Assembly (NCBI GenBank): GCA_963845755.1 | Contig: CAWJTV010000011.1 | Location: 640,001-704,000, forward strand | Reading direction: 5' to 3' | DNA from: an uncultured Planctomycetota bacterium | GTDB lineage: Bacteria > Planctomycetota > Planctomycetia > Isosphaerales > Isosphaeraceae | DNA length: 64,000 nucleotides | Shown here: positions 2,901 through 41,277 of the stretch, one piece after another | How positions within the stretch are numbered: the first letter of the stretch is position 1 | Layout: each line of letters opens with the position of its first letter | Notes under the pieces: model-generated | The model's database searches: none | The model's input: only the letters and a program-made list of their open reading frames with translations | Told to the model about the DNA's origin: nothing | Made by a program: the position numbers and the translations under genes

Positions 2901-3416
2901 TCACGACTCCTGCCACTGGCCGCTGACCACGGGGCTGTGCTCGTCGAAGAGCTTCTCGATGTCGAGGATGATCAGCAGGCGATCGTCCAGACGGGCGAGG
3001 CCGGAGATGTACTGATGGGCGACCGCCAGAACGGACAGCGGCGGCGGCTGGATCTGGTCGCGGTTGATCCGCATGACCTGGGTGACCGCGTCAACGATGC
3101 AGCCGACCGTCTTATCATGGATATTCACCACGACGGTACGCGTCTCGTCGTCGACCTCGCGGGGCGTCAGGCCGAATCGCTTTCGCAAGTTGATGATCGG
3201 GATGACCGAGCCGCGCAGGTTGATCAGCCCCTCGATGAAGTCGGGCACCTGGGGAATCCGCGTGATCGGCTTCATCAAGATGATTTCCTGGATCTTGGTG
3301 ATGGCGATCGCGTAATCCTCGTTTTCAAGCCGGAAGCCCACGAGCTGGATGATCGGGTTGTCGCCCCGGCGGACGACACCCTCCGCAGACGGGACGTTTC
3401 GAGTTCCAGCGAACAT
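2901..3416 (-). CDS. cheW: Chemotaxis coupling protein CheW
   Basis: QLVGFRLENEDYAIAITKIQEII...ITRIPQVPDFIEGLINLRGSVIPIINLRKRFG is a typical CheW sequence. Confidence 0.95.
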   Translation of the reverse strand: MFAGTRNVPSAEGVVRRGDNPIIQLVGFRLENEDYAIAITKIQEIILMKPITRIPQVPDFIEGLINLRGSVIPIINLRKRFGLTPREVDDETRTVVVNIHDKTVGCIVDAVTQVMRINRDQIQPPPLSVLAVAHQYISGLARLDDRLLIILDIEKLFDEHSPVVSGQWQES

Positions 3417-3568
3417 GGTTGCAATTCCTGGTGTGCAATCGTCAGTCGTCAGTAAGAGTCGATCTTCGGCCGGGCTTTCCTGCTACCTGGATGATCGTTC
3501 CGACTTCGTCACGGCGACAGATGAACAACAGCATCTGTCGGCGCGGAGACCGCGCCGGACCTCGGCGT

Positions 3569-3889
3569 TCATCGCCGCGACGGCCGGCTCATCGGGATGT
3601 CGCAAGAGGACTTTTGTATCTTACATTGGTTTTTCTCTTCTTGCATGACGTCCCCGTCAGAATGATCCGGGATCATGGTGCGGCGTGAGCCCTCGTCGGC
3701 GCGGTCTTCCCACCAGGCTTCGTGGTCGTTGAAGTCGTCATCTTGTGCGCAATCGGCGTGTTCGCGACCCCCTGCCAAGAATCGCGGTCGATCATCCGAC
3801 CGTTTCCTGGGTTCGTTCGGTGGATTCTGGATGAGCTGCTCGTCGCTCACCCCGTGACGATCGCGGGAAGGGTTGGCAACTTTTGGCAT
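3569..3889 (-). CDS. Small hypothetical protein upstream of cheW
   Basis: 106 aa ORF with GAGGA shortly upstream, on the same strand as the che genes; no recognisable domain. Confidence 0.3.
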   Translation of the reverse strand: MPKVANPSRDRHGVSDEQLIQNPPNEPRKRSDDRPRFLAGGREHADCAQDDDFNDHEAWWEDRADEGSRRTMIPDHSDGDVMQEEKNQCKIQKSSCDIPMSRPSRR

Positions 3890-4332
3890 TTTTTGAGAGG
3901 GTCCTCATCTCCGATCTCTCTGGTTGGAATCGAGTTGCGGCGACCCCGCGATTCGATAGGGGCGGCCTGACGGCCTGACTTGGAAGTGATCGCGCGTGGC
4001 TCATACTATTAGGATGCCGCAACTTTTGAAAAACATTAATGCACCTAGCGCGGTTTTCGGGCCGCGCGCCTCCGGAACTCTCGATGTCAACGGCAGATGC
4101 GAAAATCTCAAAAAAATTTTAGTCGGTTGTTTAGATCAGGTACTTATGGCCGGCGCAGGCGCGCGGATTGGCGATTTCTTCCCAAGGCTTCGCATTGCCA
4201 TGATTCGTCTTCGACTCACGGCCAGACTCCCCGGGCGGTCGAATGGGGGTTGACGGGGAGGAGGACCGGTCGTTGGATCCGAACTGAGCACCACCGGAAC
4301 CTTCAACGTACGGGAGACGCGGAGTCATCGAC

Positions 4333-4782
4333 ATGGGATTCATCCCGAAGGGCGCTCGCTGGTACCTGGCCGGTCTCATCCTCGAACACACGATTGAGGG
4401 CGACCCCCGGAACGTCGTCCACGTCAACACGCATCTGATCGAGGCGGATTCTCCCGAGGAGGCGTACCAGAAGGCCAACGCCCAGGGCCGGGCCGGGGAA
4501 ATCGAGTACGCCAACACCGACGGCAGGATGGTCCGCGTCGCCTTCCGCGGCCTGCGGGATCTGGATGTGATCCACGACGACCTGGAGGACGGGGCGGAGC
4601 TGTTCTACGAGGAACGGGTCGGCATCCCCGAGGACGCCTTGGCGGGGTGGGTCACGCCCAAGGAGGAGCTGGCGGTCTTCGCGCCGAGACAGGCCAGGTC
4701 GGGCGGTCCGAATTACCTGCCCCAGGAGATCGCCGAGATGCTGGAGGCGCAGGGGATCTCGCGTCCGGTTGACGAGGGCTGA
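4333..4782 (+). CDS. DUF4288-family protein
   Basis: WYLAGLILEH...VHVNTHLIEADSPEEAYQKA...Y.N.DG..V...FRGLRDL...LEDGAELFYEE resembles DUF4288; GGAG upstream of the ATG. Confidence 0.7.
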   Translation: MGFIPKGARWYLAGLILEHTIEGDPRNVVHVNTHLIEADSPEEAYQKANAQGRAGEIEYANTDGRMVRVAFRGLRDLDVIHDDLEDGAELFYEERVGIPEDALAGWVTPKEELAVFAPRQARSGGPNYLPQEIAEMLEAQGISRPVDEG

Positions 4783-4855
4783 TCCCGGGACTTGCGATCA
4801 TGCAATTGTCTGAGGCCGCCCTGATGGGACGTAGGTCATCGAGGCGTAAAGCCGA

Positions 4856-7800
4856 TCAGCGATAAGTCCTGGCCGGGCGGAAACCGTAGTTGATCATGCG
4901 CATCGACGGCGAGTCCCCGCCAAGGACCGCCGAGCGGTCGTTCGACGGAGGATAGCTGAACGCCCCGCCCCGAAGCATACGAGGGGTGTCGTTATCATAT
5001 ATATCTGATGATATACCAATATCAATTCGCCTGCTTTCTCCGGAAATCCTGGAACGATCCTGACACCACTCCCAGACGTTGCCATGAAGATCGAACAGGC
5101 CGAGATCGTTGGGTTTGAGCCTGCCCACAGGCTGAGTTCTGTCATTGGGCGAGTTCGAGACATACCACCCGTATTTTCCCAGTAACCCCCAGGGCTCGCC
5201 GAAGGAATACCCCGTAGCCGCTCCGGCACGGCATGAGAATTCCCATTCCGCCTCGGTCGGCAGGCGATAGCCCGTTCGGTTCTGAATATCCGAGATCAGC
5301 TTCATGCCCTCGCCGTAGTCTCCCTTCTCATTCGGACCATAGCACCATTGGTCCTCGGGGAATCCCTCCTGCTGGCTCAACCAATTGCAGTAGGCGGCCG
5401 CCGCAAACCAATTGACCGAGTTCATCGGACAGGTTGGCTCAGGACTATATCGCTCTTCGTTCTTGACCTGGAGCCGGGGGTTCTCCTTCAGGCACCGTTG
5501 ATACTGCTCCACGGTGACTTCCTTGTTGGCGATGGCGAAGCTATGACCGATTCGTTCTCGATGTTGGTCCCCTCTCTCCCCCATCTCGGACTCAACCGGA
5601 CCTCGAACGATGACCATCGTCTGACCCTGGCTGTTGACGTACCATTCACGGTGGTTCTCCTGCGAACGTGCTGCACCGTGGTCCCCATCGAGCGTGGGGA
5701 GAGGCCGTTTTGCCAGGTCGTTATCGATCGCCTGGAGTTGAGGCTCACTCCGCCATTGACGGAGCAGCCAGTCCGCCGCCCCGTGAATGCCAGGATCCGG
5801 ATCATTGCGGTAGAGGTCCAGGAGTGTCTTCGCCCAGCCATCCCGCTCGTCGGTCGAAAACCGACCTTCCCCATACTCGCCAAGGCTCAGAATCAACGCC
5901 CTGCGAATGGAAACATCGCCCTCCTGGACCAGTTTGGAAATCAGGAAAACGGGTTCAACTCCCACGGGTCCAAGCCGATGGACCACGTAACTTCGCAGGC
6001 TGGGATCGGGACTGTGTCTCAGCAAGGTCCATGACTTCTCCATTCGTCCCATCCGGATCAAGGCAACTGTTGCGTTCGCTTGCCGCTGGTAGAACTTCTC
6101 CCACGCCTGGTTCTCCAGGTCGGTGGGTATTCCACCTTTTCGGGGAGTCCGCTTCTTCGCGAGTTCGACCTCGAGACGTGGAGCGGTCTGATCCGAACGC
6201 CTTTCGACACTGGGATAGAGTGCGGCGAACGGCTTCTCCGAAGCGTCCATGAGCAGTTGCGCCAACTCATCGGGCCGATCGCGCACGTATTCGGCAAGCG
6301 CACTGGCCGCCAGGGTTCGCTCGGATTCCCCGCGCTTCTCGTCGTGGAAGATGGCGCTCAGAGGCTCGCTGAGCTGGTTGGCAACAGGGCGAAGCGCGTC
6401 GATCCAGCGGGCGACCCCGTAGGCATTCTCGGCGACGAGCCGATTCGCCACGTCGATACGGACCTGCTCCCATCGAGGATTCCTGGGATCGTAGAGTGCC
6501 AGCGCGCCGGCCGCCGGGAGGGCTTTCCCTCGATCTTCCGGTCCCGGCTCCTCCAGCACCCGCCAGCATTCGGCGACGAGGGTGTCCTTGTGCCCGGCCA
6601 GCGCCTGGCGAAGGACCAAGATACTCTGGGCGTCGGCATGGAACAGCCGGTCCATCAGGTAGGGCAATTCCGCGATGCCGTCCCGATCGAGCAGGGCCAG
6701 GGCGGCATGCAAGTGCTTCTCGGATGTCCTGGCCTCCCTGGCTTCGGCATCAGCCTGTCTCAAGAGCGGATCGACCCATTGCCGGTAGGGTTCGAGCTCG
6801 ACGATGATGCCCGGTACGTCCAACAGCGGGGAACCCAGGAGTTTGTCCCGCAACCTCTGGGCTTTCAGCCGGCCATTCGCTTCGTAGCCTCCCCAGGCCA
6901 GGAGGATCAGCATCGTCGCCAGGGTCAACCCTCGAACCCCATACACTCGCCCCGCCCGTCTCATCATCTCGCGTTGCGGATCGGTCCAGTCCTTCTTCCG
7001 GGTCATCAGCCGGATGTTTGCCCACTCCAGGGAGGATGGCAGGTGGCGGTTTTCGGGCCTGGCGTTCCAGAGGGAGGAGCGTTCCGCCAGCCGCAGCTCC
7101 GCACGTCCGCGCCGGGTCTCCCGCTGCTTGCGGGTCAGCCAATCCCGCAGCGAGTGGACCAGGTAGTCGTGGGTGAGCTGGTAGAAGGATTCCGGAAAGG
7201 ATGAAGGATGAAGGCGGAAGGATGAATCAGACCGGTCGGCCTCCGTCGGTGGATTCTTCCCATTCATCCTTCCGCCTTCATCCTTCATCCTTCCGAAGCC
7301 TTCATCCTTTTCCGAGGGGTCTGTCGGCGTGATCAGCCGTAACTCCGGGTCGAGGATGCGGATCAGGTCATCGAAGTCGCCGGGGCGGTTGGCATAGCCG
7401 GAGGCTTCGCACAATTCCTGACGGGACCTCATCTGCCCCTTGATGTCGGTGCCGCTCTCGGGGAGCAGGGCTTTCAAGACGGCCTGGGCGGCCGTCTGGT
7501 GGAAGCGGTGCTCGGCAGGGGCGGTCGCGGCGCTGAAGGTCTCTTCGAGGAACGTCAGGCCGACGCCTTCCATGCCGCCCACCTCCCGGAGCGTGGCCGG
7601 GGTCCAGGGTTTCCCCTTCATCATCTCGGCGAAGAGCGCCAGCCGCACCGAGATGACCTTGCCGTCCTGGGCGAGTCCCGAGATCGCTTGATCCAGAAAC
7701 GTCTCGTGATCCTTGCTGAGATCGCGTACGCTCTCGGGCAATGCCCCGTAGGCCCGCCCGAACGCCATCAGGACCTTCCGGGCATGGCGGGGGTCGAAGA

Positions 7801-9416
7801 GGTCCACCAGGGCGCTGTTGTCGCCTTCGAGCAGGCGGATGTCCAGGTCGCGCAGGAACCGGCTGGCGGCGAGCCAGAAATCATCTCGGACCAGCACCAC
7901 GGCCTGGACGTGCTCGCCATCGCAGTGCCGCAGCGCGGCGACGAGCTCGGCATTCTCCTCACCGCGCCGGGCATGGAGCCACTGCTCGAACTGGTCCAGG
8001 ACCAGCAGCACTTTCCCCTCGGGCGGCAAGAGGCGGCCCCGTCGCAGGTTGGCCAATGAATCGACCAGCCCCGACGATCGGGGCAGCTCCGGACAGACCT
8101 TGCGCACGCCTTTGAGAAGCCGGGCCTCAGTCTCCTCCGGCGTCGCCTCGAGGTAAACCGGCAGGATATGCTTTCCCAGCCGGGGCAAGAGGCCCGCCTT
8201 GACCAGCGACGACTTGCCGCAACCGCTGGGTCCGTAGATCAGCCCCACGCGAAACGTCTGGTCGGGATCGATCGCCTCGATCTTGCGCTTCCAGAACCGG
8301 AGGCTCTCGGGCAGTCCGTCGCGGTCGCGCGGGCCGGGGAGCAGTTCCAGGAAGAAGTCGGCATCGTGCTCGTCGAAGGATCGCAACCCCTTCGGCACGA
8401 TCTTGATCGCTCGTTGATCGGAGTCGGATTGTCGAGAGACGGGCGGCAGTGGAGCGGCTTCCAGGGCTGAGCCGGGCGGCGTGCTGATGGGGACCGCGGG
8501 AGGGGCTGGAGGGGCCGTGGCTGCCTCGGCCTGGAGGAACGCGCGCAGGTCTTCCGCCATGTCCCTGGCGGTGGTGTACCGATCCGAAACCCGCTTCATC
8601 ATGGCCTTGAGGCAGATCCGTTCCAGCTCCCTGGGGATCGTGTCATCGACCTGGCGCGGTGGGCGAGCCTCAGCCCGGGTCACTTGCTCGACGATCTCTC
8701 GAAGCGCGTCCGCCCGGAATGGCTGGCGGCCGGTCAGTAACTCGTAGAAGACCACGCCCAGGCTGAAGACGTCCGAGCGCCCATCGACGAGGTGCCCCTC
8801 GCCGCGGGCCTGTTCGGGGCTCATGTACGCGGGCGTTCCCGCCAGCCCGCTCCCCTTGCCGAAGTCCTCGTCCTTGAGCGCCAGTCCGAAGTCGGCGACC
8901 GAGGGCTGGCCCGAGGCGTCGACGAGGATGTTGGCCGGCTTGATGTCGCGGTGGACCACCCCTCGGGTGTGGGCATAATGCAAGGCGTCGGCGAGGGTGG
9001 CGACCAGCTCCGCCGACTCCCGGAAGGACGGTCGAGCCTGCCGCGATCCGGACCGCCAGGTTGCCGCCTTCCACAAACTTCGATACGACGAAGCAGAATC
9101 CGTCTTCCGTGCGGCCGACATCGAAGACCGGCACGATATGAGGATGGTCGAGCTTGGCCAGCATCCGGGCTTCCGCGAGAAACGCCTCGACATCCTGGGG
9201 ACCTTGGATGTGTTGCCGATTCGGCACCTTGATCGCCACCAACCGGTCGAGGTCGTCGTCGCGGGCCAGATAGACCCGTCCGAACCCGCCCTGACCGAGG
9301 TACCGGTGGATCCGGTAGCGTCCGGTCCTTGTGGGATCGCCATCCGGGGCGCCGCTCGAGCCCGCGGCGTGCGGTTCGACGTCCACGGTTTCCGACAGGT
9401 CCTTCGTCTCATCCAT
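4856..9416 (-). CDS. Ser/Thr protein kinase + STAND-type P-loop NTPase + helical repeats + C-terminal FGE-sulfatase (C-type-lectin fold) domain, copy 1 (indel near 9040)
   Basis: The N-terminus of 8670..9416 (LGQGGFGRVYLA, VAIK) joins 4856..9574: HRDIKPAN, DFGLA, GTPAYMSPEQ; Walker A GPSGCGKSS; Walker B LLVLDQFEQ; FGE motifs YRLPTEAEWE, PNDLGLFDLHGNVWEWCQD, RGG...GFRPART. Confidence 0.9.
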
Positions 9417-26324: not shown

Positions 26325-27954
26325 TCAGCCTGTCTCCAGTCCACCCGATTTTGGGTACCAGCGAGCTGCCCGGGTGGTTCCCACAAATTGAACCTTTCCG
26401 TCGTCTCTGAGCTCCCTTAGCAGAATCTGCACCTGGCCGCGGCTCAAGGCAGGCAGCACGTCCCTGAGATCCTGCAACGGGCTTCCATCCGTCGCGTTCT
26501 CCTGGATGTGTTTCATCAGCAAGCTCTTGTTGGTCTCACGATCGAGGCCCTTCTTGCGGGTATAGGCGCCCTTCTTCCCGACGAAAGAATAGTAGCGTCG
26601 CGAGAGCATGAGTTTGCCCCGCCCCGCCCGCTCGATCGTGCCGATCTCGAGGAGCCTGTCGATGCGAGGCCGGTAGACATCCGGTACTTTCTCGCCGCGG
26701 GCGACGTAGCCGAGGATCATCCAGTCGGCCGTGGAGAAGCTGGCAAGCTGCTCGTTGCCGACCTTCTCCAGGAACCGGACGAACAAAGGATCCTGGATGG
26801 TCCCGTGCAGTGTGAGGGAGACCTGATATCGGTCGGTATCGGTGAAATCCGGGAGTGGTTTGCTCGCGCGGATCGACTCCTCGAAGATCATATTCATCCC
26901 CTGGCCGGAGCGCTCGACAAGACCACATTTCAGGAAGACGTCGGCGAGTCGCCGGTTTCGCGGAGACTGCCGGTCGAGGATGTTCTCCAGGGTGATCGGG
27001 TAGGGGAGGCCACCGGGGCTGGTGATCTCGATGCGGCGCGGATACTGCCGGACGAAGATGTTCGATCCGAGCTGGTAGTCGCGGTGGCTGACGGCGTTGA
27101 GGATCGCCTCGCGGACCGGCCGTTCGGAGAACGTCGCGATATCCAGGATGAAGAGTCCGTCCTGGTAGTGCTGGAGATCGTTCCGCTGATTGATCGTGTT
27201 CCAGAGATCGTCGTAGAAGCGAAAGAAACCGACGCGGTAATCCTTGCGCCTGGGCGGGGCCGGAAGCGTCGGAGGATCGGTATTCAAAGGTGACCTCGGA
27301 TTGCGCCAGGAACCGGCCCAGCGCCCGGTGGGTCCCGAAGAGGATCAGCGCCGCGTAAGTGAGACGTCCATCGATCACCAACTCGGCATCCGTGAGGAGT
27401 TGCTCGGGCGAGAGCGTCGCGAGGGCGTGGTTGCCGGACTTGTGGATCCAGGGCCGCCGGAACTCCTCGATCGCTTCGAGATCGAGGTCGCTGAGCGTCG
27501 CCTCCTTGCAGATCTCGGCGGAGAAGTCCCGCCCGCCCTCGCCGAAGATCAGGCGGAGTTGCTCTTCTCTCATGGGCACGAGGCGATCCCCATCCCGGCT
27601 CCAGTAGATTCCCTTGTCCGCAATGGGGACGCCGACGGGACGGGACGGGATGTGGAACACCAGCACTGGGCCGTCGGGATGCGGGATCTCATCGAAATCG
27701 ATACGCAAGGGAATCCGGTCGCGAAGGCCCATCAACGTTCGCTCGGGCTGGGCGAATGCGCTCGAGCCAACGACTTGACGGGGTCGCTTGTCCGTGACGC
27801 CGAGAATCACCTTGCCTCCGCCGCTGTTCGCCAGGCTGACGCAGTACTTGACCAGTTCCTCAAAGTCGAAGTGTCTCTTGGCTTCCTTGAATTCGCACTG
27901 CTCCCCTTCCTTGCCTTGCATCCAAGCGTCGAGCTGTTCCACGAGCGTGCTCAT
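26325..27954 (-). CDS. AlbA_2 (Schlafen-like) domain + HATPase_c_4 (RecG C-terminal-like) ATP-binding protein with C-terminal HTH (indel near 27250)
   Basis: EGEQCEFKEA...YCVSLANSGGGKVILGVTD (AlbA_2); VREAILNAVSHRDY, IEITSPGG, RNRRLADVF..CGLVERSGQGM. Confidence 0.85.
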
Positions 27955-28157
27955 GCGTCTCCCGTGTCCCCTGGTTTCTCGATGATCGGCGACTGCGAAC
28001 TTCCGACGATCGGATCGGACACAATCACCGTACCAGCCCCTTGTTGCCGGCTCAACGGGCTATTACAGTCCATGTTAGTGGTCGAAGGCTCCCCGGCCGT
28101 GCACGACACGGGGTGAGGAACCGACCGGAGTGTCTTTTTCTCGAGGGAGGTGACGCG

Positions 28158-29481
28158 ATGTCTCGAACCGGACCGCTCACGAAGACGATGATGAGCCGGC
28201 GCGAGTCGCTCAAGACGATGGCCGCGGCCGGCGTGGCCTGCCTGATGCCGACGATCATCCCGGCCTCCGCGCTGGGCCGGGGCGGTGCCGTCGCGCCGAG
28301 CGAGCGCATCGTGCTCGGGGGTATCGGCCTCGGGCCGCGCGGCGAGTACGACCTCAAGTGGATGCTCCGCGAGAAGGACGTGCAATTCGTCGCGATCTGC
28401 GACGCGCGGAAGGTGCGGCGCGAGGCGATCAAGCAGATCGCCGACAAGCATTACGGCAGCTCCGACTGTCAGATGTATCCCGAGATGAAGGAGTTCCTCG
28501 CGACCCGCGACGACATCGACGCCGTGCTGATCGCGACCGGCGACCGCTGGCATTCGCTGGCGACCATCACGGCGATGCGGGCGGGCAAGGATGTGTACTC
28601 CGAGAAGCCGTCGTGCATGACGATCGCCGAGGGCCGCGAGGTCGTGGAGACCGCCCGGCGGTATGGCCGCATCTACCAGACCGGCACCCAGCGGCTCAGC
28701 GAAGGACCGTTCGTCACCGCCATCGAGCTGGCGCGCTCCGGACGGCTCGGACAGGTGCAAACCGTCCGCGCCCACATCGCGCCCTGGGACGCCGCCGAGA
28801 TGAGCCACGCCTGGCTCCCCGAGGAACCCCAGCCCTCCAAGGACGAAGTCGACTGGGACGCCTGGCTCGGCCCCTGCCCCTGGCGGCCGTACAACTCCAC
28901 TTATGTCAAGGGCGGCTGGCGCGGTCATTACGACTTCCACACCAGTTGCATCGGCGAGTGGGCGCGCACACCTTCCCCCAATCCCAGGCCGGCATCGATG
29001 CGCTGACCACCTCGGCCGTCGAATATCAATACGTGAAGAATGCCACCGGCGACGGCATGGTCGTCAAGTTCGGCAACGGCGTGCAGATGGTCCTGTCGCG
29101 GGGCGACAAGTACTGGCACGGGTCCTGCGGGATGCGGTTCGAGGGGACTGAAGGCTGGGTTGCCTGCGCCGACAGTTACAAGAAGCCCGAGGTGTCCAAG
29201 GACAACCTGCTCGAGGACGGCACCAAGCTGCTGGCCGACTACATGGACCGCACCCAGCGCCCATGAACCACGCGCGCAACTTCTTCGATTGCGTCAAGTC
29301 GCGGCAGCAGACCGTGGCCAACCCGGACGTCATGCACCATTCCATGAGCACCGTTCACGGGGCCAATATCTGCATGTGGCTCAAGCGCGACCTGAAATAC
29401 GACCCGGTGAAGGAAGAGTTCAACGACCCCGAGGCCAACCGGCTGCGCACCCGCCGCCAGCGCGAGCCGTACATTTATTGA
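28158..29481 (+). CDS. Gfo/Idh/MocA oxidoreductase with Tat-like leader (indels near 28960 and 29260)
   Basis: SRRESLK leader; GIGLGPRG, DAVLIATGDRWH, GKDVYSEKP, QTGTQRLS, DWDAWLGPCP; C-terminus NHARNFFDCVKSR...DPEANRLRTR. Confidence 0.88.
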
Positions 29482-30260: not shown

Positions 30261-30395
30261 ATTCGAGGAAGTCTCTCACGGGGCCCTCTGGCCGCGCCCG
30301 AACGAGGGATTCCGGAGTCGAGATTCCGGAGTCTCGAATCTCGTTGCGGCTCCGCCGCGTCGGGTTCCTGGAAAAAGATTAGAGGATTCATTCGT

Positions 30396-31495
30396 ATGTT
30401 GATGAATAGACGCGATGTGCTCCGCCGGACGCTCGCGACGGCAGGCCTGGGCGTCGCCGGCCTCGGATCTCGCCGAGCGAGGGCCGAGGCCCCGCCCCGG
30501 GCGCTGCCCGATGCGACACCCCAGCATCTACCGCGCTGGCGCGGGTTCAACCTGCTCGACAAGTTCATGGTCAACTCGCAGAAGCCGTTCGTGGAGCGAG
30601 ACTTCGCGGATATCGCCGAGCTGGGCTTCGACTTCGTCCGGCTGCCGCTGGATTACCGATGCTGGACCGACCCGGCGAAACCACGCGATCTGAAAGAGCC
30701 GATCCTCAAGGAGATCGACCAGGCGGTCGAGTTCGGGCAGAAGCATGGGATTCACGTCCAGCTCAACTTCCACCGAGCGCCGGGGTTCACGGTCGCCAGG
30801 CCGGCGGAGCCGAAGTCGCTCTGGACCGACCCGGAGATCCTCGAGGTCTGCGCCACCATTGGGCGAGCTTCGCGGCGCGATATCAAGGCATCCCGAACAA
30901 CCGGGTCAGCTTCAACCTGTTCAATGAGCCCGACGACAAGGTCAAACCGGACGAGCACCGCCGGGCGGTCGAACGCGTGGCCGGTGCGATCCGCGAGCGC
31001 GATCCGGACCGATTGATCGTCTGCGACGGCCGCGCCTGGGGCACCAAGCCGCCCGAGGAGCTGCTCGGCCTGAAGGTCGCGGCGGCGATGCACGACTACA
31101 CCCCGATGCCGCTGACCCATTACAAGGCGTCGTGGGCCAACTGGGACGAGAGCTGGCCCGAGCCGATCTGGCCGCTCAAGACGAACGATAATAAGTACAT
31201 CACCCGCAAGACCATCGCCCTGGACGTGATCAAGCCCTGGAAGGACTTCGAGGCCAAGGGCGTGGGCGTGATGGTGGGCGAGTTCGGCTGCCATAACATG
31301 GCGCCGCACCGGTTCGTCCTCTCCTGGATGCACGACACGCTCGAGGAGATCAAGAAGGCCGGCTTCGGCTGGGCCCTGTGGAACTTCACCGGGAGCTTCG
31401 GCATCTGCGACAGCGGCCGGTACGACATCGCCTACGAGACCTGGCACGGCCGCCAGCTCGACCGGGCCATGCTCGAGGTGCTCCAGGCGGGGTGA
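30396..31495 (+). CDS. Glycoside hydrolase family 5 (cellulase family) with Tat signal (indel near 30855)
   Basis: NRRDVL Tat motif; WRGFNL, GFDFVRLP, HVQLNFH, catalytic FNEP and GEFG, GWALWNF. Confidence 0.88.
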
Positions 31496-32929: not shown

Positions 32930-33277
32930 TCATTCCGCGCTTCGCCCTGTCAGCTCATCGAGCGCAGCCCAGACGGCCTGGAGTACGGCATCTGAGATTC
33001 GACCCAGCCTGGACTGGATGAGGCGCTGGTCCAGGACCGTCATCTGGAACACCAACGCTACGGAGGCTCGCTGCAGGCCATTCTCCGCATCGGCATCAAC
33101 CGGGACCGTGCCGGGGAAGCGAAGGGCCGCGAGTTGCGTGGTCATTGGGATCAGCAAGATGGTGGGGAGGCGTGACGTCGCCGCCGCGTCCTGCGCCACG
33201 ATCGCGGGCCGGCGTCCCGCCTGCGCGTGCCCGTTCCGTGGCGGAAAATCCACCCAGTACACATCGCCCACGTTCAT
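32930..33277 (-). CDS. PemK/MazF family toxin
   Basis: MNVGDVYWVDFPPRNGHAQAGRRPAIVAQD...LLIPMTT...GLQRASVALVFQMTVLDQR...LGRI. Confidence 0.92.
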   Translation of the reverse strand: MNVGDVYWVDFPPRNGHAQAGRRPAIVAQDAAATSRLPTILLIPMTTQLAALRFPGTVPVDADAENGLQRASVALVFQMTVLDQRLIQSRLGRISDAVLQAVWAALDELTGRSAE

Positions 33278-33516
33278 GATGATTCCTCTTCCTCCTCGAA
33301 GGGGAACATCTCCCAGGTTTGCGCGCTCAGGGCCTGCCATTCGGCCAATTCCGCGGCCAGTTCCGCGCTCATCGGTTCATCACTCAATGGAACGAGCAAG
33401 ACCCCTCCACGAGTCTCAAGGATCCGGACGGGAGTCGCCGGCGACATGCCGTATCTCTGCCGCACGCCGTCGGGTAATTCGATTTCACCAGATGGGCCGA
33501 CGATCAAGGTTTCCAT
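33274..33516 (-). CDS. AbrB/MazE-type antitoxin
   Basis: VGPSGEIELPDGVRQRYGMSPATPVRIL; overlaps the toxin start by 4 bp. Confidence 0.8.
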   Translation of the reverse strand: METLIVGPSGEIELPDGVRQRYGMSPATPVRILETRGGVLLVPLSDEPMSAELAAELAEWQALSAQTWEMFPFEEEEESS

Positions 33517-34130: not shown

Positions 34131-34538
34131 ATGATTCCACCGTTTGAGGAAAACGGGTACTTGCCGCCGGGACTCCATGGCGCCACGCTCGCTGAGATTG
34201 AAGCCCGCTTCGGCCAGCAGACGGAGCTGCGACAGGTTCAGATGGAATCGCTTCAATGGCTCATGGATCTGGCGAGACGTGCGGGGGTCCAGCGGATCGT
34301 CATCAACGGGAGCTTCGTAACAGACGTGCCTGAACCCAACGATGTGGATTGTGCATTACTCATCAGCCCCGGTTTCCCACACGACCCGAATGCGGAACAA
34401 GAGCTGCTCCAGGGGTTGCCCTTCCTCGATATACATCTGGTGCGGCAGGACGGCTGGGACGAACTAGTGGGGACCGTGTTTGGCACGGACCGGCGCCTCA
34501 ATCCCAAAGGTATGATCGAGATTGTATCATGGAACTGA
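34131..34538 (+). CDS. Nucleotidyltransferase-like protein (DUF6932-like)
   Basis: MIPPF...GYLPPG.H.ATL.E...RFG; NGSFVTD.PEPNDVD (GS...DxD pol-beta motif); C-terminal KGMIEI. Confidence 0.75.
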   Translation: MIPPFEENGYLPPGLHGATLAEIEARFGQQTELRQVQMESLQWLMDLARRAGVQRIVINGSFVTDVPEPNDVDCALLISPGFPHDPNAEQELLQGLPFLDIHLVRQDGWDELVGTVFGTDRRLNPKGMIEIVSWN

Positions 34539-34759
34539 AAGATGAACGTGAGGTCGAGGTCACTCGGGACAAGCTTCGCTCGCTCGAGGCGCGCTATCGA
34601 GCGATCCAGGACGAACCGGGTGAGGACTCCCATATCCAGGAGCTGACCCTGCGATCGCTCAAGCGGATGATCAATCAGATGAAGGAAGAGATCGCACGAT
34701 TCGAGGCGCACCGAACTTCAGGAGCATCCCGCGCCCGCACCACTATCGCGAAGAGTTGA
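34529..34759 (+). CDS. Small coiled-coil protein overlapping the nucleotidyltransferase (putative partner)
   Basis: MELKDEREVEVTRDKLRSLEARY...SLKRMINQMKEEIARFEAH; the start overlaps the upstream gene's end. Confidence 0.7.
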   Translation: MELKDEREVEVTRDKLRSLEARYRAIQDEPGEDSHIQELTLRSLKRMINQMKEEIARFEAHRTSGASRARTTIAKS

Positions 34760-34792: not shown

Positions 34793-37700
34793 CTAACGAC
34801 GCGACAGCCGGACGATCTCATCCTCCGGAATCTGCCGTGGGTTAACCGCGGAGAGAAGCGCCTTCACGGGAGTGACCTCGCCGTCGCGGATGAAACAGAA
34901 CTCGCCGGGCTCTTGTGAGGGCAGGCGGCTGGCGACGTCGATGCGGCAATCGCTGAGCATCGGCTTCATCTTGGCGATCGAGTTGGCTTCCTTCACCTGG
35001 CCGACCAGCCAGGCGCGGATGTTGTCGCGGCACTTGTAATCGAAATCGCCGGGGCTCTGGGTGGCCAGCAGTAGGCCCAGGCCGGCCGATCGCGCCCGCT
35101 TCAGCAGGTGCTCCATCGGCTCCTTGGTCGCCGGTTGTCGCACCGCCGGGAGATACAGGTCGGCCTCGTCGAAGAGGACCACCGCCTGGAGTGTCCCGTC
35201 CGGCGCGGGCGACTTGCTGATCCAGCGCCCCAGGCGCCATCAGGAGCTGCGAGACCCAGAACTGGACGTCCTGGTTGGTCCCCAGGAACTTGGTGCTGAT
35301 GATGCTCAGCCGGGTCTTGCCCGACGTCTGGCCCAGGCCTCGGCCCAGCAGCGCATCGACGTCGAGTGGCTCGCCCTCGGCGGCCAGCAGGTCGCCGCGG
35401 ATGTGTCTCAGGGTCTCCAGGTCCTGGACCAGCCGGTCGAAGAGCTTGACGTCGAGGTGGCCGACCACATTGATCAGGGCGGGGTCCTTCTCGGCAATGA
35501 AGTTGACCAGGGCCTGGATGGATATCGCGGCCCGAGGTTCCTGGCTGAGCAGCTCGATCGCGCGGATCAAGATCGCCAGGCATGATTGATCGCGCTTGTT
35601 ATCCCCGTAATTCATCATGTCTGCCAGGGCCGTGGCGGCGAACTTGGCGGCCTGCTCGCGCTCGTGAGAAGGCAAGGCCCCCAACCCGGCGGGGACCGCG
35701 GCGATCGACAGCGGCCGCCCGTCGGGCCGGCGCGGGGTATACAGGGCGACTTCCACCGAGGAGCGGAGCGTCTCCGCCCGCGCGGCCAGCTCGCGGTCCA
35801 GTCCGGCGCGCAGGCCCAGGTCCGGCCGGGCGTAGGCACACAGGTCGCCCTTGCGGTCGATCAGGATCGCCGGGATTCCCTGGACCAAGAGCTGCTCGAC
35901 GACACCCAGCGCGGCCGTCGTCTTGCCGCTGCCCGGCGCACCCAGGAAGGCGGCATGCCGCGTCAGCTCGGCCGGGTCGATCGCGACCGGCTCGCCGCGG
36001 CGGTCGCTTGTGGTGCCGATGACGATGCGATCGGCCCGGGGCAGGGGGGGGCTCGGCTCCGGCGGCTTGACCGTCGTCGCTCCGGCCGCGGGATTGGAGG
36101 GAACCGACGGTTCGGCGGGTGTCGGGGCGATCGTTGGTGTCGGCTCGGGCCGTCGGTCCAGGTCGAGGATCGCGCGCAGCGACGTGAGACCGGTCAAGGG
36201 CCGGCTCCGCTTGAGCCAGGCCACGAAGGCCGGGTCGGCGTCGATCCCGCGGCCTGTGCGAAACACGGCCAGCGCCATCATCGTTCGCCAGTCGGAGTCC
36301 TCGACCACGACGCGACGGCCGCCCCGGGCGATCAGCTTGCCCAGTTGCTGCGAGACCGCCGCTTTGGGATTCGCCGGGAACGCCGTCGAGCGGACGATGA
36401 CCGGCGTGTGCTCGCCGGCGCGGCGCTCGACCTCCTCGATCTGACGACCCAGCGCGCCGCCCTGGGGACCCTTGTTGCAGACGCCCGCCAGCAGTCGCCC
36501 GACCGAGTTGTCCGCGGCATGGCGCTCGGCGAAGACGAAGCGGCCGGCCGTCTCCGCTTCGAAAACGTCGCCCGCCTCCACTTCGCTCGAGCACGAGATG
36601 ATCGCCGCCGCGAGGATCGCCGCGAGTTCTTCCTCATCGGTGGGGACCACCATCGTCAGGGTCGAGCGCAGCTCGTTCCAGGCCTGCTCGATCTCGACGA
36701 TCTTCGACTCCAGGTCCCGGACGCCGGAGTCAACGCGGGCATCAATAGGGTAATCCGCCATCTTCCCTTTCGCGATGCAATGCTCGCGGTAGACCTGGAC
36801 CGCGCCAGGACATCCCGGCGCGCAGGCCCACCAGCCTGGCGACCATCGCCTCGGGGAGCGGGAACGTCGGCTGGTCGGCCCGGAACGAGACTTCCATCGA
36901 CTCGTACAGATACTTCAGCCGCTGGGCGATGAGCTGCTCGACCTGATCGCGATCGCAGGGGGTCGTCAGGCCGACCGGCGGAGGGTCGGTCTCGATCCGA
37001 TCCTTGATTGGCCTGGTGAGCAACTTCTTCAGCTCTTCGTAGTAATCTTCGAGGCAGGCGATGACCACGATGGCCGAGCGGAGCCGGCTGACGATGTCGC
37101 AGAGCGTGGCCATGGCGCGGCGGAACTTGACGGCCGCATCGTCCAGGTCGAAGACATCCTCGAGCTGGTCGACGCACAGGATCAGCGGGACGTTCTCGAC
37201 GGCCCACATCAATTGCCCCAGCCGTTCGATGAGCCGGTGCGGCGCGTCCGGATACGTGCAGGGGACGATCCCGCCCAGCAGCCGGCGGTCGTGCTCGGTG
37301 AGGTCCTCGCAGCGGAGATACTTGAGCACGCCGCGCCTTGATCCGCGGGTCGTGACCTTGAAGATAGAGCAATGCCTGGATCAAAAAGACGTCGATCGTG
37401 TTGAACCGGTCGTCGAGGATGATCCGATCGGCCATCTCGGCGACCAGTTGATCGAGGCCGGGCTGGTCGAGGCCCCCCTCGCGGAGCCGGTCCAGCCAGT
37501 CGCGCGGGACGTCGCGCGACGATTCGGCCAGGGCGTTCGAGAGCCGCATCAGCCCCGTGGTCTCCGACCGGGACTCGTCGTAGGCCTTGTCGAGCGAGTC
37601 GATCAAGTTGTTGAGCACATAACGGCCATACTGGCCCGTGAACGCAGTCATCTGCAGGTAGCCGCAATATCCCGACGACCGGGCATGGACCCGGTTGCGG

Positions 37701-38002
37701 AAGGCCCGCATGAGATGAGTCTTTCCCGATCCGGCGTCGCCCAGCAAGAGGAGGATCCGGCCCGCCGGCAGCCCCGAGATCTCGCGCACCCGCCCCACGA
37801 TCCGCTGGAACGTCTCGCGCGCGCCGGCGTGGATCGACTCCACGTCGAACGGGTCGCGCCTCCAGATATCGTTGGCGTAGGCAAACGCGTGGAACAGCTC
37901 GGGAAGCGGCCTCGAGCAGAACGCGGCGACACGAGGATCGACCCCGACCGGACCGCCCGGCGACTCGGGGCTCGTTTTCGCACTCATGATAGCTGTCGCC
38001 AT
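34793..38002 (-). CDS. Large double ATPase: N-terminal AAA-like P-loop domain + C-terminal HerA/FtsK-like (DUF87) domain (indels near 37330, 36800, 35235)
   Basis: First domain LLGDAGSGKTHLM and LILCVDQLED; second domain HAAFLGAPGSGKTT, ILIDRKGD, VLFDEADLY, LLKRARSAGLGLLLATQSPGDFDY. Built from ORFs 36656..38002, 36742..37329, 34842..36761 and 34793..35182. Confidence 0.82.
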
Positions 38003-38014
38003 GGAAGACCACCT

Positions 38015-39053
38015 TCAAATTCGGATAAAATGAAATGTGGCGTTGAGGTAACTTACCTCGGACATGCGGACGTCCTCCGGGTCCATGGCCTGGACCAGGT
38101 CGGCCCGGCTCAGGTCGAGCAACCGGGCGTTGTTGGCCGCGGCGAGGAACTCCCGGAATCGATCGAGGCCCATCTCCGCGAAGTCCGGGTCGGATTGGAG
38201 CATCCTCCAGACGTGCACGATGAATACCTTGTTATCGCCGTAGCGTCCGGTCGAGCAGGCGCGGGCGGCGGCCTTGACGCGCTCGGCCAGTTCGGACATG
38301 GGGAGTGCCGTCTTCTCGGGCTGCGAGCTGTGCGGCGGAGATCCCAGCGGGCCGCTGTTCCGGTCAACCCAGTCGCGAAGGACGGCATCGCGGAGCTCTT
38401 TCGAATCATCGCGCCGCGCACCCGCGTTCTGTGCGACCAGACGGCCGGCGGCCTTCTTGAAGTCGGTCGCGCGGCCGTCGCCCAGCGCGGTTCAGTACGG
38501 CCGCCTTGACGTTCTTGAGATCGAATTTCCGGGCTTCGCCCTCGAAGCCGATGAGCTTCCAGGCGAGGGCATCGATGGCATCGTCGAGCGTCTTGGGGAC
38601 CGCGGCGATCGGCAGGTCATACTGGCGCCTGAGCAACACCGCCTTGAAGATGGGGTCCGATCCCATCGCCTTGAGCTGGGCCTCGCCCGAGGCCGGTAGA
38701 CCCAGCACGCTGGCCGGGAGATACGTCTTCCTGATCACGGTCCAGTTCGTCCTGGGCTTGAGCGACTCGACACCCAGGAATTCGAGCCCGCGCCGGCGGC
38801 CCGCCGCGGTCAGCGTGACCTTGGGCGCGGCCTTCCTGGACTTGCCCAGCAGGAAGGCCACCAGCCCGTCGGCCTTGAGCGCCTCGATCGCGTGGTTCAG
38901 CGCGGCGGCCAGCGGTGTGCCCGAGCATCGGTGCGCCAGAAGCGGCTCGAGGTCCTTCTGGATCTTCGAGATCGATTCGCCCTTCTCGCCCGCGACCAGC
39001 AGCCGAATCAGGACCAGGGACCCAATCGCGTCGTGATTCGTCGCAGACGTCAT
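38015..39053 (-). CDS. Hypothetical protein with N-terminal winged-helix-like region and conserved-looking C-terminal domain (indel near 38490)
   Basis: ATG overlaps the DUF559 stop (ATGA at 39050-39053); AIEALKADGLV...VTLTAAGRRRGLEFLG; C-terminus GDNKVFIVHVWR...LDLSRADLVQAMDPEDVRMSE...FHFIRI. Confidence 0.7.
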
Positions 39054-40262
39054 GCGCGCTCCCTCACTTCCTGCCGATGCCGGCAAAACGCGACCGCCGA
39101 CAGGAACGTCTCCAACAGCTCCTCGAGACGCCCGACGACGTCGGCGGCGAGGATCCGCAAGACCAGGTAGCCGCGCTTCTGCAGCTCCAGGTCCTTGCGG
39201 CGGTCGCGGCGGTAAGACTCCGGGTCCTGGAAGTGATAATATCCGTCGATCTCGATGACTAGCTGGAGCGAGCGGGCGACGAGGTCGACCTCGATCGGTC
39301 GGCCGGCACCGAAGTGGAAGTCGAGCGTGGTATTGAGCTCGAACAGCCCGGTGGTCTCGGGCAAGGATTCGAGCAGGTCGAAGACGAATTGCTCGGCGGC
39401 GCTGCGGGCGTCATCCTCGGAAGGATGAAGGATGAAGGATGAAGGATGAGTGAATTCGGCGTGACTCGGCGTGCCCCCTTCAGGTTCCAGCCTTCCCGCC
39501 TCCGGTTCCAACCCGACCTCACGAGGAGGCGGGGAGAGCACCGATCCCCGCAGCAGCGCCTTCGGCGCGCGACTCGGGCGCCTGGTCGAGGTACGCCGCG
39601 AACGCGTCGGGCTCGACGATCAGCCCGAGGGTGGCCTGGGGCTGGGCCTCGGCGAGGTCGGCGAGCAGCCGCGCGAGGCTCACGAGCTGCGAGAGATCTT
39701 GCCCGGCCGGCGCGGCGAGCAGGACGGGCAGGCACTCCTGGGGGACCAGCTCGCCGATGGCCCGATACACGCGGAGCCAGGGCCGGCCGTGCCCTTCGAG
39801 CCCGGCGTTCAGCTCCGGCCCGAGCCCCGCCTTGGACCGCCGGTGCCCCTGGGCCGCCAGCTCGATCAGGCGGCGGACCGCCAGCTCGACGCCCGATTCC
39901 GAGACCAGCGGGACGGCGGAGTCCAGCAGCCTCGCCACGTCATGAGCCGTCATCCCGCGGAGCTGTCGGCCGAGCAGACCGGCAGGCTGATCCCGCCGCT
40001 CCGCCAGCCAGGCGACCGCGGAATCGACCAGATCGCGCCCGGCCGCCAGCCGGTCGACCCACGGAACCACCAGGCTCTCGGCATCCGTTTGCTCCGAGCG
40101 CACCAGCACCATCTCCCGCCCCAGCTCCCACGCCCAGCGCCGGAGGGACTCCAGCACCGGACCGATCGGTCCGGCCAACACCGACACCGTGGGAACCCCG
40201 GCTCGACGACGCTCGTCGTGACGATCGAGCCCATTGTCCATTGCGTCGAGTGCCGAGCCCAT
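39050..40262 (-). CDS. DUF559 (Vsr-like PD-(D/E)XK) endonuclease with a long N-terminal extension (indel near 39550)
   Basis: C-terminus ARSAAEQF...EVDLVARSLQLVIEIDGYYH....YRRDRRKDLELQKRGYLVLRILA; N-terminus from ORF 39519..40517. Confidence 0.8.
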
Positions 40263-40633
40263 CGCCTGCGTCCTCAGCGGATTTCTGGCCTGATTTCGAC
40301 GTCCTCGGTCATGACGACCGCCTTCGCGGTCCCGTCGTGATTCGCGTGGGATCCGATCTGACCGAGGACACCGGACAAAATCACATTCTCCAACAGCCAT
40401 GTGCGACTGTCCACGCGCCAGGCCGTGCAGGTGCGGAATTTGCAGGCAGGTTTCCGTTGCCGTCCGGAGAATCCTGCGCTTTCCACGCGGAACCGAAGCC
40501 CGACGGACGACGAACAACTACCAAAGGACAACGAGAAGCCCCTTGAGAGCTGATCCCCGGCAGGCTAAGGTGCATCCGGTGTCTCTCGAAGGACCCTTGA
40601 ACCTCACGATACCATCAACCAAGGAGACATGAC

Positions 40634-41200
40634 ATGGCGATCACGAAGTGCGTTGCGTCCCTGGCTGCCGGCTCGCTCATCTGCGTCGCGGTCCTGGGAT
40701 TGCGAACGCAGGCCGCCGCGCCGGAGAAGGCGGCTGCCGGAACTCCGGTCACCAAGGCCAGCGCCCAATTGATCCCGACGACCAAGACGCAGAGCACGGT
40801 CAAAGGCACGATAACCTTCACCAAGACCGAGCACGGCGTCCACGTTTCCGGGGAGATCACGGGGTTGACTCCGGGCGAGCACGGCTTCCACGTCCATGAA
40901 TTCGGCATCTGGAACGAGGACGGTACCGCCTCGGGAGGCCACTTCAACCCAACGGGTGCACCGCACGCCGCGCACGACAGCGCGAAGCGGCACGTCGGCG
41001 ATATGGGCAACCTCAAGGCCGACGAGAGCGGCAAAGCCACCGTGGAGCTGGACGATGATCAGATGAGCTTCGAGGGCCCGACCTCGATCCTGGGCCGCGG
41101 CCTGGTCGTCCACGCGAAGGCCGACGACCTCAAGACCCAGCCGTCCGGCGACGCCGGCGGCCGGCTCGCCGTCGCGATCATCGGCGTGGCCAAGCCCTAG
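40634..41200 (+). CDS. sodC: Cu/Zn superoxide dismutase (exported)
   Basis: AAGGAG RBS and signal peptide; HGFHVHE, GGHFNP, RHVGDMGN, GRGLVVHAKADD, GDAGGRLA. Confidence 0.93.
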   Translation: MAITKCVASLAAGSLICVAVLGLRTQAAAPEKAAAGTPVTKASAQLIPTTKTQSTVKGTITFTKTEHGVHVSGEITGLTPGEHGFHVHEFGIWNEDGTASGGHFNPTGAPHAAHDSAKRHVGDMGNLKADESGKATVELDDDQMSFEGPTSILGRGLVVHAKADDLKTQPSGDAGGRLAVAIIGVAKP

Positions 41201-41207
41201 GCTCTCG

Positions 41208-41277
41208 GAAGGATGAAGGATGAAGGATGAAGGATGAAGGATGAGTCCGTAACTGGTCTTATTCAGCCTTCAACCTT
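41208..41277. repeat. Heptamer (GAAGGAT)n tandem with a degenerate inverted arm, downstream of sodC
   Basis: GAAGGAT x5 at ~41208-41242, followed by TTCAGCCTTCAACCTTC. Confidence 0.85.

Follow-up and report, generated by a model that had tools for sequence, protein, structure and literature searches.

A stretch of 64,000 nucleotides (nt) from an uncultured Planctomycetota bacterium of the family Isosphaeraceae (GCA_963845755.1, contig CAWJTV010000011.1, positions 640,001 to 704,000; below, the window) carries, on the minus strand at 34793-40262, a cassette of three co-oriented and coupled genes that we call A, B and C. In this order, they encode a nuclease with an N-terminal AAA+-like domain, a winged helix-turn-helix (wHTH) protein, and a large protein in which two ATPases are fused, the second of HerA/FtsK type. 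Our analysis indicates, with a probability of roughly 0.6, that the cassette is a conserved and horizontally spread unit of the Orc/CDC6-coupled 'HerA/FtsK capture' type, most likely a predicted defence against invading phages or plasmids. A preliminary description of this DNA had concluded that the three genes match no system that could be named; this no longer holds, as a class predicted in the main text of PMC10853773 fits them.

Gene order and modularity of the cassette

A search with a piece of C returned 474 proteins at E <=0.001 among 8000 scored candidates. Its relatives are often 1050-1100 amino acids (aa) long and at most named 'helicase HerA-like domain-containing protein' or 'putative ATPase'. 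Species-representative genomes contained 182 stretches encoding a C relative, and gene order was counted by tblastn of the window pieces in the best 80 of these 182, taken with 7-kb flanks. The 5' end of C was present in 70 loci, and B lay directly upstream in all 64 with at least 1150 nt of upstream sequence. Upstream of B, a DUF559 match was found in 51 of the 59 loci with at least 2500 nt upstream, one of the 51 (L006) being a remnant. The gap between the stop of A and the start of B ranged from -32 to +29 nt in relatives (29 loci) and that between B and C from -59 to +99 nt (44 loci), while the open reading frames (ORFs) of Singulisphaera acidiphila DSM 18658 (L015, 4609-10213; 428-431, 361 and 1074-1080 aa) have overlapping stop and start codons. 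A, B and C are shown to be translationally coupled and co-inherited. Lack of co-occurrence in other genomes had been named beforehand as an outcome that would refute the candidate defence system; what was found is a conserved order.

The cassette also occurs in reduced forms. Eight loci encode an intact B-C pair and no A (L007, L013, L014, L019, L023, L025, L028 and L033). At L006, a 150-nt (50-codon) segment between sodC and B (2262-2411), 58% identical to the DUF559 domain of the window, is the trace of a deletion of A. In five loci lacking an intact A (four of these eight plus L006), sodC stands in divergent orientation immediately upstream of B, and it adjoins the cassette in the window, L003 (3712-4275), L006, L007, L013, L014 and L023, a pattern that suggests long-standing vertical inheritance of this position in part of the family, followed by loss of A. 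Downstream ORFs could be called in seven loci lacking A; in four of them (L007, L013, L014 and L023) they are convergent, and these four thus carry no other attached nuclease gene.

A second type of reduction affects C itself, for which 17 of the 61 matching genomes in a family search showed only the first 620-650 positions (E <=1e-80). In two of these genomes, the gene after B encodes an AAA_16 protein of 621 or 675 aa that corresponds to the first half of C (L086 in G389, 6402-9376; L087 in G368, 3316-6531), and tblastn at E <=1e-4 found no HerA half and no A nearby. The ORFs downstream of these two pairs are unrelated, one encoding 602 aa without a Pfam family and the other carrying Abhydrolase_11. 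Judging by their partial matches, fifteen further genomes of the family may be HerA-less in the same way. Since B and the AAA+ half of C are kept in loci without HerA or without the nuclease, they are apparently the most persistent pair, and HerA and the nuclease look like add-ons.

Domain architecture of the encoded proteins

C opens with an AAA_16/AAA_22-type ATPase, continues through a middle alpha/beta domain and a variable, proline-rich linker, and ends in a HerA/FtsK-type ATPase (Table 1); its full-length homologues span 1049-1272 aa. Pfam analysis of the window sequence identified AAA_16 (8e-8), DUF87 (2.2e-7) and HerA_C (5.2e-5), together with an nSTAND1 match below cut-off (2e-5). In an intact homologue, AAA_22 (4e-10) and AAA_16 (4.4e-8) cover residues ~66-293, and DUF87, HerA_C and TrwB_AAD_bind follow from residue 659, with DUF87 (38.8 bits) and HerA_C (41 bits) above their cut-offs. 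This agrees with the preliminary description, which had proposed a fused protein of ~1070 aa with two P-loop modules and the HerA-type one at the end, and all of the motifs that it named were located. Both Walker A/B pairs are invariant among 39 homologues, those of the first module reading G-x-x-G-x-G-K-T and D-Q-x-E. The first module also gave weak nSTAND, NACHT and Hda matches and appears to belong to the ORC/STAND-like P-loop group, possibly to the Orc/CDC6 family as such.

The HerA module features an insert of ~100 residues between its Walker motifs, which is probably helical. In PADLOC, mad8 is the model that fits this module best (7.9e-24), with residues 666-1035 aligned to positions 10-287 of its 314 positions, and profile matches in the PDB were obtained to HerA (8wiv_A, 1.6e-6) and YjgR (11kk_A, 1.6e-6). 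All NCBIfam matches of C fall far below their cut-offs, with HerA_antiphage at 26 bits against a cut-off of 800. The conserved middle domain has no Pfam match, and an ESM Atlas search with residues 335-655 returned only unnamed clusters with scores <=0.83. An alignment block of this domain shows an invariant Cys, within 'CNK', at the expected E-x-K position of a PD-(D/E)xK enzyme, and the domain is possibly an inactive restriction-endonuclease-like fold.

In A, an N-terminal AAA+-like domain with no Walker A motif is joined through a variable linker to a DUF559/Vsr-type PD-(D/E)xK nuclease domain at the C-terminus; intact homologues are 375-461 aa long. In the window, Pfam assigned DUF559 (8.5e-8) and no family within the N-terminal 330 residues. 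Columns D348, E359, D361, H365, R373 and K378 of the nuclease are invariant across 32 aligned homologues. An AlphaFold model of the S. acidiphila homologue (predicted local distance difference test score, pLDDT, 88.2) was used for structural comparison. Residues 304-417 match 3hrl_A (Z 10.4, root-mean-square deviation (rmsd) 2.1, 94 aligned), the catalytic domain of the homing endonuclease I-Bth0305I (3r3p_B, Z 10.0) and Vsr (1cw0_A, Z 8.2), which bears out the Vsr-like nuclease with a long N-terminal extension recognized earlier. That extension (residues 5-327) matches Cdc6 (1fnn_B, Z 10.9, rmsd 7.0, 196 aligned) and other AAA+ folds: RdrA (8fnt_B, Z 10.1), ORC/Cdc6 (7jgr_C, Z 10.1), TnsC (7rzy_1, Z 10.0), BrxC (9zll_A, Z 9.7) and MuB (Z 9.0). 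Foldseek agrees with these fold matches, more weakly. In the consensus of homologues, the P-loop position reads ...PTLSVLxGP..., with no GK[ST], and the AAA+ domain of A is probably not an enzyme since the Walker A motif is missing.

The N-terminal wHTH domain of B is followed by a helical middle part, from which a disordered linker (236-265) leads to a conserved C-terminal alpha/beta domain. B has no family in Pfam, PADLOC or NCBIfam. An AlphaFold model built from an alignment of 41 sequences (pLDDT 88.7) matches winged helices of the HxlR/MarR/PadR type over residues 1-117 (3df8_A, Z 11.5, rmsd 2.4, 89 aligned), with Z still at 9.3 at rank 50, and the preliminary assignment of a wHTH-like second protein can be retained. 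This N-terminal domain filled the match list of the structure search, which did not reach the C-terminal domain, and a Foldseek comparison with the PDB returned nothing for B at E <=0.001. The C-terminal domain is the best-conserved part of B (...GRFGDxKVFISHVW...LSRADLVxAMDP...ATFHFIR; 41 homologues) and, on our reading of the model, may have a wHTH-like order of helices and strands. The DNA-binding end is variable, and mean column identity of B is 37% in the same alignment.

Joint structure prediction of B with residues 1-630 of C gave a score of 0.47 against 0.00 for the best of three controls, and the runs agreed in at least 69% of contacts with partner pLDDT of at least 76. Of 157 solved complexes, 116 passed the mark used, as did 2 of 215 mismatched pairs; among those that passed with scores <=0.60 were only 18 of the 157 complexes and both mismatches. 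The prediction gives weak support to a contact between B and the AAA+ half of C. Profile-profile comparison of B and C revealed no significant relation (E 0.23).

Relation to known and predicted systems

Rakesh, Aravind and Krishnan (Nucleic Acids Res 2024; PMC10853773) predicted, by comparative genomics, Orc/CDC6-coupled 'HerA/FtsK capture systems', and the theme is repeated in PMC12839542. According to the main text of the former, the parts of this class are an Orc/CDC6 AAA+ protein, HerA/FtsK, a restriction endonuclease (REase) and wHTH domains, 'in single or multiple polypeptides'. In the Orc/CDC6 protein, an inactive REase is described as an insertion behind the AAA+ core, and the active REase is said to belong to 'two families'; a fast-evolving multi-wHTH protein is sometimes present, and one HerA version carries a helical-bundle insert. 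The AAA+ protein is proposed to localize the apparatus while HerA pumps invader DNA to the nuclease.

The HerA/FtsK, active REase and wHTH parts of this class recur in the cassette. Its HerA/FtsK domain is evident in C from DUF87, HerA_C, mad8 and the HerA and YjgR profiles, and the ~100-residue insert parallels the helical-bundle insert of the published version. The first module of C, with AAA_16/AAA_22 matches above cut-off, is a candidate for the ORC/Cdc6-class AAA+ component, and a Cdc6/ORC fold is seen in the N-terminal domain of A; the middle domain of C is a possible counterpart of the inactive REase. The invariant D, E-x-D and H columns of A and its Vsr/I-Bth0305I-like fold correspond to an active REase, and the N-terminal domain of B to the wHTH component. 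The proposed logic, namely to localize, pump and cut, is likewise shared. The cassette differs in that the AAA+ half of C does not visibly end in a wHTH, in that its nuclease has a degenerate AAA+ domain of its own, and in that neither DUF559/Vsr nor the taxa that carry the cassette are named in the main text of PMC10853773, on which this comparison is based. As far as it could be tested, the cassette fits the HerA/FtsK capture class, and it matches no named or experimentally tested system. The same source describes 'CR-effector'-like proteins, which A resembles in its order of folds, with a Cdc6/ORC-like AAA+ domain ahead of a REase-fold nuclease; A differs from them in lacking Walker A.

Among experimentally tested systems, MADS of Pseudomonas aeruginosa includes MAD7/MAD8, an ATPase-nuclease module needed for defence (PMC13662399). 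The HerA-type half of C, with mad8 as its best PADLOC match, has its nearest tested relative in this module. MADS is an eight-gene, methylation-based system, whereas the cassette has three genes and no methyltransferase, kinase or other mad genes; the mad8 model has 314 positions against the ~1070 residues of the fused C, and A and B match no mad model.

Like Sir2-HerA, DUF4297-HerA (Gao_Her) and NurA-HerA, the cassette pairs a HerA-type P-loop motor with an adjacent effector. No Sir2, DUF4297 or NurA domain occurs in A, B or C, so the distinction from these systems drawn in the preliminary description stands. In contrast to stand-alone HerA systems, the HerA of C is fused behind a second ATPase, and PADLOC HerA models match it only locally. 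DndFGH is similar in that a large multidomain protein ends in a HerA/FtsK domain and acts together with wHTH proteins and a nuclease, and the PADLOC DndH model gave weak local matches in the HerA region of C (E 8e-4 and 2.7e-4). Unlike DndFGH, the cassette contains no DndF/DndG relatives, SWI2/SNF2 remnant or phosphorothioation genes, and B matched none of the DndG/DptG/SspB models of PADLOC at E <=0.01. The PADLOC run proposed earlier as a check returned no system-level match, and no PADLOC or NCBIfam model matched A or B.

Distribution, genomic context and alternative roles

Cassette loci were found in Planctomycetota, Myxococcota, Desulfobacterales, Gamma- and Betaproteobacteria (Thiocystis, Nitrosomonas), Cyanobacteria and Verrucomicrobium, relatives outside Planctomycetota showing 39-47% identity. 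Within the family of the window, C was detected at E <=1e-80 in 60 of 120 other genomes and 28 of 53 genera, and in 18 of 47 high-quality genomes when that of the window (G000) is included. An even sample of the phylum outside this family yielded the cassette in 2 of 300 other genomes. No full-length relative was present in 72,556 plasmid or 50,697 phage records, where the only matches were three partial HerA-domain hits in plasmids (34-38% of the query).

Flanking genes were surveyed at 26 of the 80 loci, picked for an intact C and for taxonomic spread; ORFs were called crudely (longest ORFs, GC3 filter) and 143 of them were scanned against Pfam. A defence- or mobility-type family lay within three ORFs of the cassette at seven loci: PIN (L038), a DDE transposase (L040), NERD, TIR_2 and SIR2_2 (L048, Nitrosomonas), two Uma2 plus BrxL (L061, a cyanobacterium), a DDE_3 fragment (L064), a C5 (Dcm) methylase (L069, Myxococcus), and Vsr, a C5 (Dcm) methylase and an Eco29kI-like gene (L079, Myxococcus). 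The flanks of L033 (Prok-RING_4) and L020 (TPR, HATPase_c_3) are ambiguous, and the remainder are mostly housekeeping genes that change with lineage: rhaA and an aldolase in Singulisphaera, glutathione synthetase in Archangium/Cystobacter, anthranilate synthase in Myxococcus, and smpB and recN in one gammaproteobacterium. In Thiocystis (L044/L045, 4030-11597) the cassette sits between nrdR and glyA (SHMT), with ribD beyond. On enrichment in defence islands, which the preliminary description had proposed to check, the survey is mixed, defence or mobility neighbours at a minority of loci standing against housekeeping flanks at most. The cassette is a self-contained unit that has landed at different places, is old and frequent in one family, and is no classic defence-island resident.

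Several points weigh against a defence role. C is present in half of the family, full-length relatives are missing from the plasmid and phage records, and defence- or mobility-type neighbours are confined to 7 of 26 loci; the prevalence within the family and the adjacency of sodC look like a vertically kept resident gene and not like a mobile defence island. The intact B-C pairs without nuclease imply that cutting by A is not the whole function. The support for a contact between B and the AAA+ half of C is slight, profile-profile comparison of A and C gave no significant relation (E 0.054), and the restriction-endonuclease-like fold of the middle domain, the ring and pumping action of the HerA half and the contact between A and C are inferred. 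A literature search found no experimental report on the cassette or any of its members.

Much of this would suit a cellular DNA-transaction module of large-genome bacteria that acts on host DNA in repair, in the processing of recombination intermediates or in chromosome handling, with the Vsr-like nuclease as a processing enzyme. The high prevalence in the family, the repeated adjacency of sodC in seven loci, the mostly housekeeping flanks, the chromosomal location and the persistence of B-C without the nuclease all point in this direction, and HerA-NurA is a repair machine in archaea. We nevertheless consider a cellular role unlikely. The cassette is nearly absent elsewhere in the phylum yet present at 40-50% identity in five or more other phyla, a patchy and transfer-like spread, and its flanks differ by lineage, including the insertion between nrdR and glyA. 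Half of the family does without the cassette, which makes it dispensable, and the variability of the DNA-binding end of B also argues against a housekeeping task.

The same change of sites between lineages could be expected of a domesticated or still selfish mobile-element module, whose ATPases would be related to TnsC/MuB target selectors and whose nuclease would ensure the persistence of the cassette through addiction or homing. This is very improbable in our estimate. The fold matches of A to TnsC and MuB at its N-terminus and to a homing endonuclease catalytic domain at its C-terminus are in its favour, as is the term 'mobile' that PMC10853773 uses for such neighbourhoods, but the conserved unit includes no transposase, integrase or recombinase, and transposase fragments adjoin it in only 2 of 26 loci. 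In the window, no terminal inverted or direct repeats bracketing the cassette were found, and a profile search of the contigs of this genome showed it to be single-copy.

Proposed mechanism and implications

As a defence system, the cassette would rely on B and the AAA+ half of C as a persistent core for sensing and loading, with the variable winged helix of B placing it on particular DNA. The HerA half of C, presumably a ring, would then pump that DNA. A would be the effector nuclease, possibly docked or gated through its degenerate AAA+ domain, in which case cutting would depend on assembly and ATP. A bolder version of this scheme is possible, if doubtful: a modular 'load-pump-cut' immune machine in which HerA and the nuclease tethered by a dead AAA+ domain are exchangeable around a core of B and the ORC-like ATPase, and in which the dead AAA+ domain inserts into or caps the C assembly and so licenses cleavage only on captured foreign DNA. 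The choice of core follows from the persistence of this pair even where HerA or the nuclease is missing.

Going by the main text of PMC10853773, this kind of system has already been predicted in print; the cassette adds a nuclease with a degenerate AAA+ domain as well as natural variants, and has no name yet. The 'HerA/FtsK capture' class rests on comparative genomics, and its three-gene form described here is compact and widespread, with intact copies in the cultured, non-pathogenic isolates S. acidiphila DSM 18658, Thiocystis minor DSM 178, Cystobacter fuscus and Nitrosomonas nitrosa. The cassette is therefore a practical test case for whether a loader-type AAA+ protein fused to a DNA pump defends against phages or plasmids. 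It also poses the questions of what B recognizes and what purpose a nuclease with a degenerate AAA+ domain serves, and the natural variants without nuclease or without HerA offer a ready-made dissection. If the load-pump-cut scheme were true, a replication-loader-type switch would be linked to a DNA translocase in a way that is new for immune systems.

Frame shifts in the window

None of the three genes forms a single open frame in the assembly of the window, and five or six shifts in total were located (Table 1), so the indels flagged in the preliminary description are now placed in all three genes. These are most likely long-read assembly indels rather than decay, since neighbouring genes are split too, a same-genus genome is shifted elsewhere and isolates are intact. 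A GH5 cellulase is split across overlapping frames (30261-31013, profile positions 22-87; 30410-31492, positions 107-269), as is an AlbA_2/HATPase_c_4 gene (26539-27954 and 26328-27344). The orthologous, syntenic locus of the same-genus genome (G346, ~86% DNA identity) encodes A in one frame and C continuously over residues 1-737, spanning two of the window shift sites, and is broken near residues 737-741 and 895-901, where C of the window is continuous. Fragmented copies among the 80 related loci come from ten metagenome bins whose names follow one style (L004, L005, L026, L028, L029, L031, L046, L049, L053 and L074), while isolate genomes such as that of S. acidiphila DSM 18658 carry intact single ORFs.

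The family profile of C is covered end to end by the window pieces (positions 1-224, 223-395, 401-926 and 926-1074 of 1076), so only the frame changes are wrong in C and nothing else is missing; the closest homologue shares 71-88% identity with the pieces. That the window instead holds a decaying pseudogene cluster, with the shifts as real mutations, is quite improbable on this evidence, even with all three genes interrupted and public short reads silent on the shift sites. Public sequencing comprised three soil-metagenome DNA runs from one study, each holding 0.05-0.06 of the stretch in short low-depth contigs; these contigs list no indels and none bridges a frame-shift site, and no RNA run was among the listed runs holding the stretch. 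Without better reads, the broken genes of this genome should not be taken for pseudogenes.

Locus layout and neighbouring genes

The positions of the genes, junctions and motifs are collected in Table 1, and the co-orientation, the ATGA overlap and the 12-nt gap reported earlier are borne out by the sequence. The single promoter match 5' of A (0.4 expected in shuffles) carries no weight for function, and a terminator scan found three candidates against 2.9 expected, none of them placed 3' of C.

Table 1. Positions of cassette features, frame shifts and adjacent genes in the window
Feature	Position	Strand	Remarks
Gene A	39050..40262	-	ATG at 40262; ~404 codons if read through
A/B junction	39050..39053	-	ATGA; TGA of A overlaps ATG of B
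Gene B	38015..39053	-	~345 codons if read through; TGA at 38017-38015
B-C spacer	38003..38014	-	12 nt, AGGTGGTCTTCC; contains AGGTGG, Shine-Dalgarno-like
Gene C	34793..38002	-	ATG at 38002; stop 34795-34793; ~1070 codons if read through
Nuclease domain of A	39053..39400	-	DUF559/Vsr-like; Pfam and fold match
IEVDL	39281-39295	-	Nuclease motif of A
IEIDGYYHF	39230-39256	-	Nuclease motif of A
RRDRRKD	39191-39211	-	Nuclease motif of A
HVWRML	38198-38215	-	C-terminal domain of B
ATFHFIRI	38018-38041	-	C-terminal domain of B
First P-loop module of C	37156..37741	-	Walker A GDAGSGKT 37718-37741; Walker B VDQLED 37156-37173
Middle domain of C	36050..36800	-	Conserved, ~200 residues; VVVEDSDWR at 36285-36311
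HerA/FtsK-type module of C	34796..35942	-	Walker A GAPGSGKT 35919-35942; Walker B FDEAD 35159-35173
IDRKGD	35844-35861	-	Further motif of the HerA module of C
ATQSP	35051-35065	-	Further motif of the HerA module of C
Frame shift in A	39555..39567	-	Right after conserved ...APESRA motif; homologue aligns in frame 1 before, frame 2 after
Frame shift in B	38480..38490	-	Near 38485; homologue alignment
Frame shift 1 in C	37329..37331	-	Profile and homologue alignment
Frame shift 2 in C	36800..36817	-	One or two indels close together; profile and homologue alignment
Frame shift 3 in C	35229..35236	-	Profile and homologue alignment
Sigma-70-like promoter match 5' of A	40385..40413	-	TGGACA, 17 nt, GAGAAT; weak consensus match
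DUF6932 ORF	34131-34538	+	Pfam 1e-24; directly downstream of C; with overlapping small ORF, region 34131-34759
MazF/PemK toxin gene	32933-33340	-	Pfam 1.1e-22; ~1.5 kb further on
sodC (Cu/Zn superoxide dismutase)	40601-41197	+	Divergent from cassette

One flank of the cassette holds the DUF6932 ORF and MazF, and the other sodC and a Big_3_5 protein. Of the MazEF pair announced in the preliminary description, the MazF/PemK toxin is present while a MazE partner was not confirmed; the adjoining pair, described there as nucleotidyltransferase-like, corresponds to the DUF6932 ORF and its small overlapping ORF. The DUF6932 ORF matches the PADLOC candidate PDC-M63A over nearly its full length (4.6e-8). 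Further away, the HATPase_c_4 part (26328-27344, minus strand) of the AlbA_2 (Schlafen-like) gene matches PADLOC Aga_SIR2-...-PNTD (1.6e-8), a group of models for a domain of Argonaute-associated SIR2 proteins. The GFO_IDH_MocA gene at 27891-29266 is also split, and the match to its C-terminal domain ends at position 88 of a 254-position profile. In places, indels seem to occur about once per kb of this assembly.

An exact 34-nt direct repeat of CTCGGAA and then GGATGAA heptamers occurs at 39416-39449 and 41204-41237 (the array extends to 41251), flanking the N-terminal two thirds of A together with sodC. One copy lies within the linker of A, in frame (...HPSSFILHPS...), and the other starts 7 nt past the stop codon of sodC. 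The 14.27-Mb genome contains no further exact copy and only 20 arrays of at least three such heptamers, and the sister-genome locus L085 has no GGATGAA heptamer array. Local duplication, gene conversion and an assembly artefact are candidate origins, and the heptamer array in the coding linker of A could be prone to slippage. Elsewhere in the genome of the window, contig C42 encodes a second, distant HerA-type gene at 104162-105351 (profile E 1.4e-22, positions 739-974).

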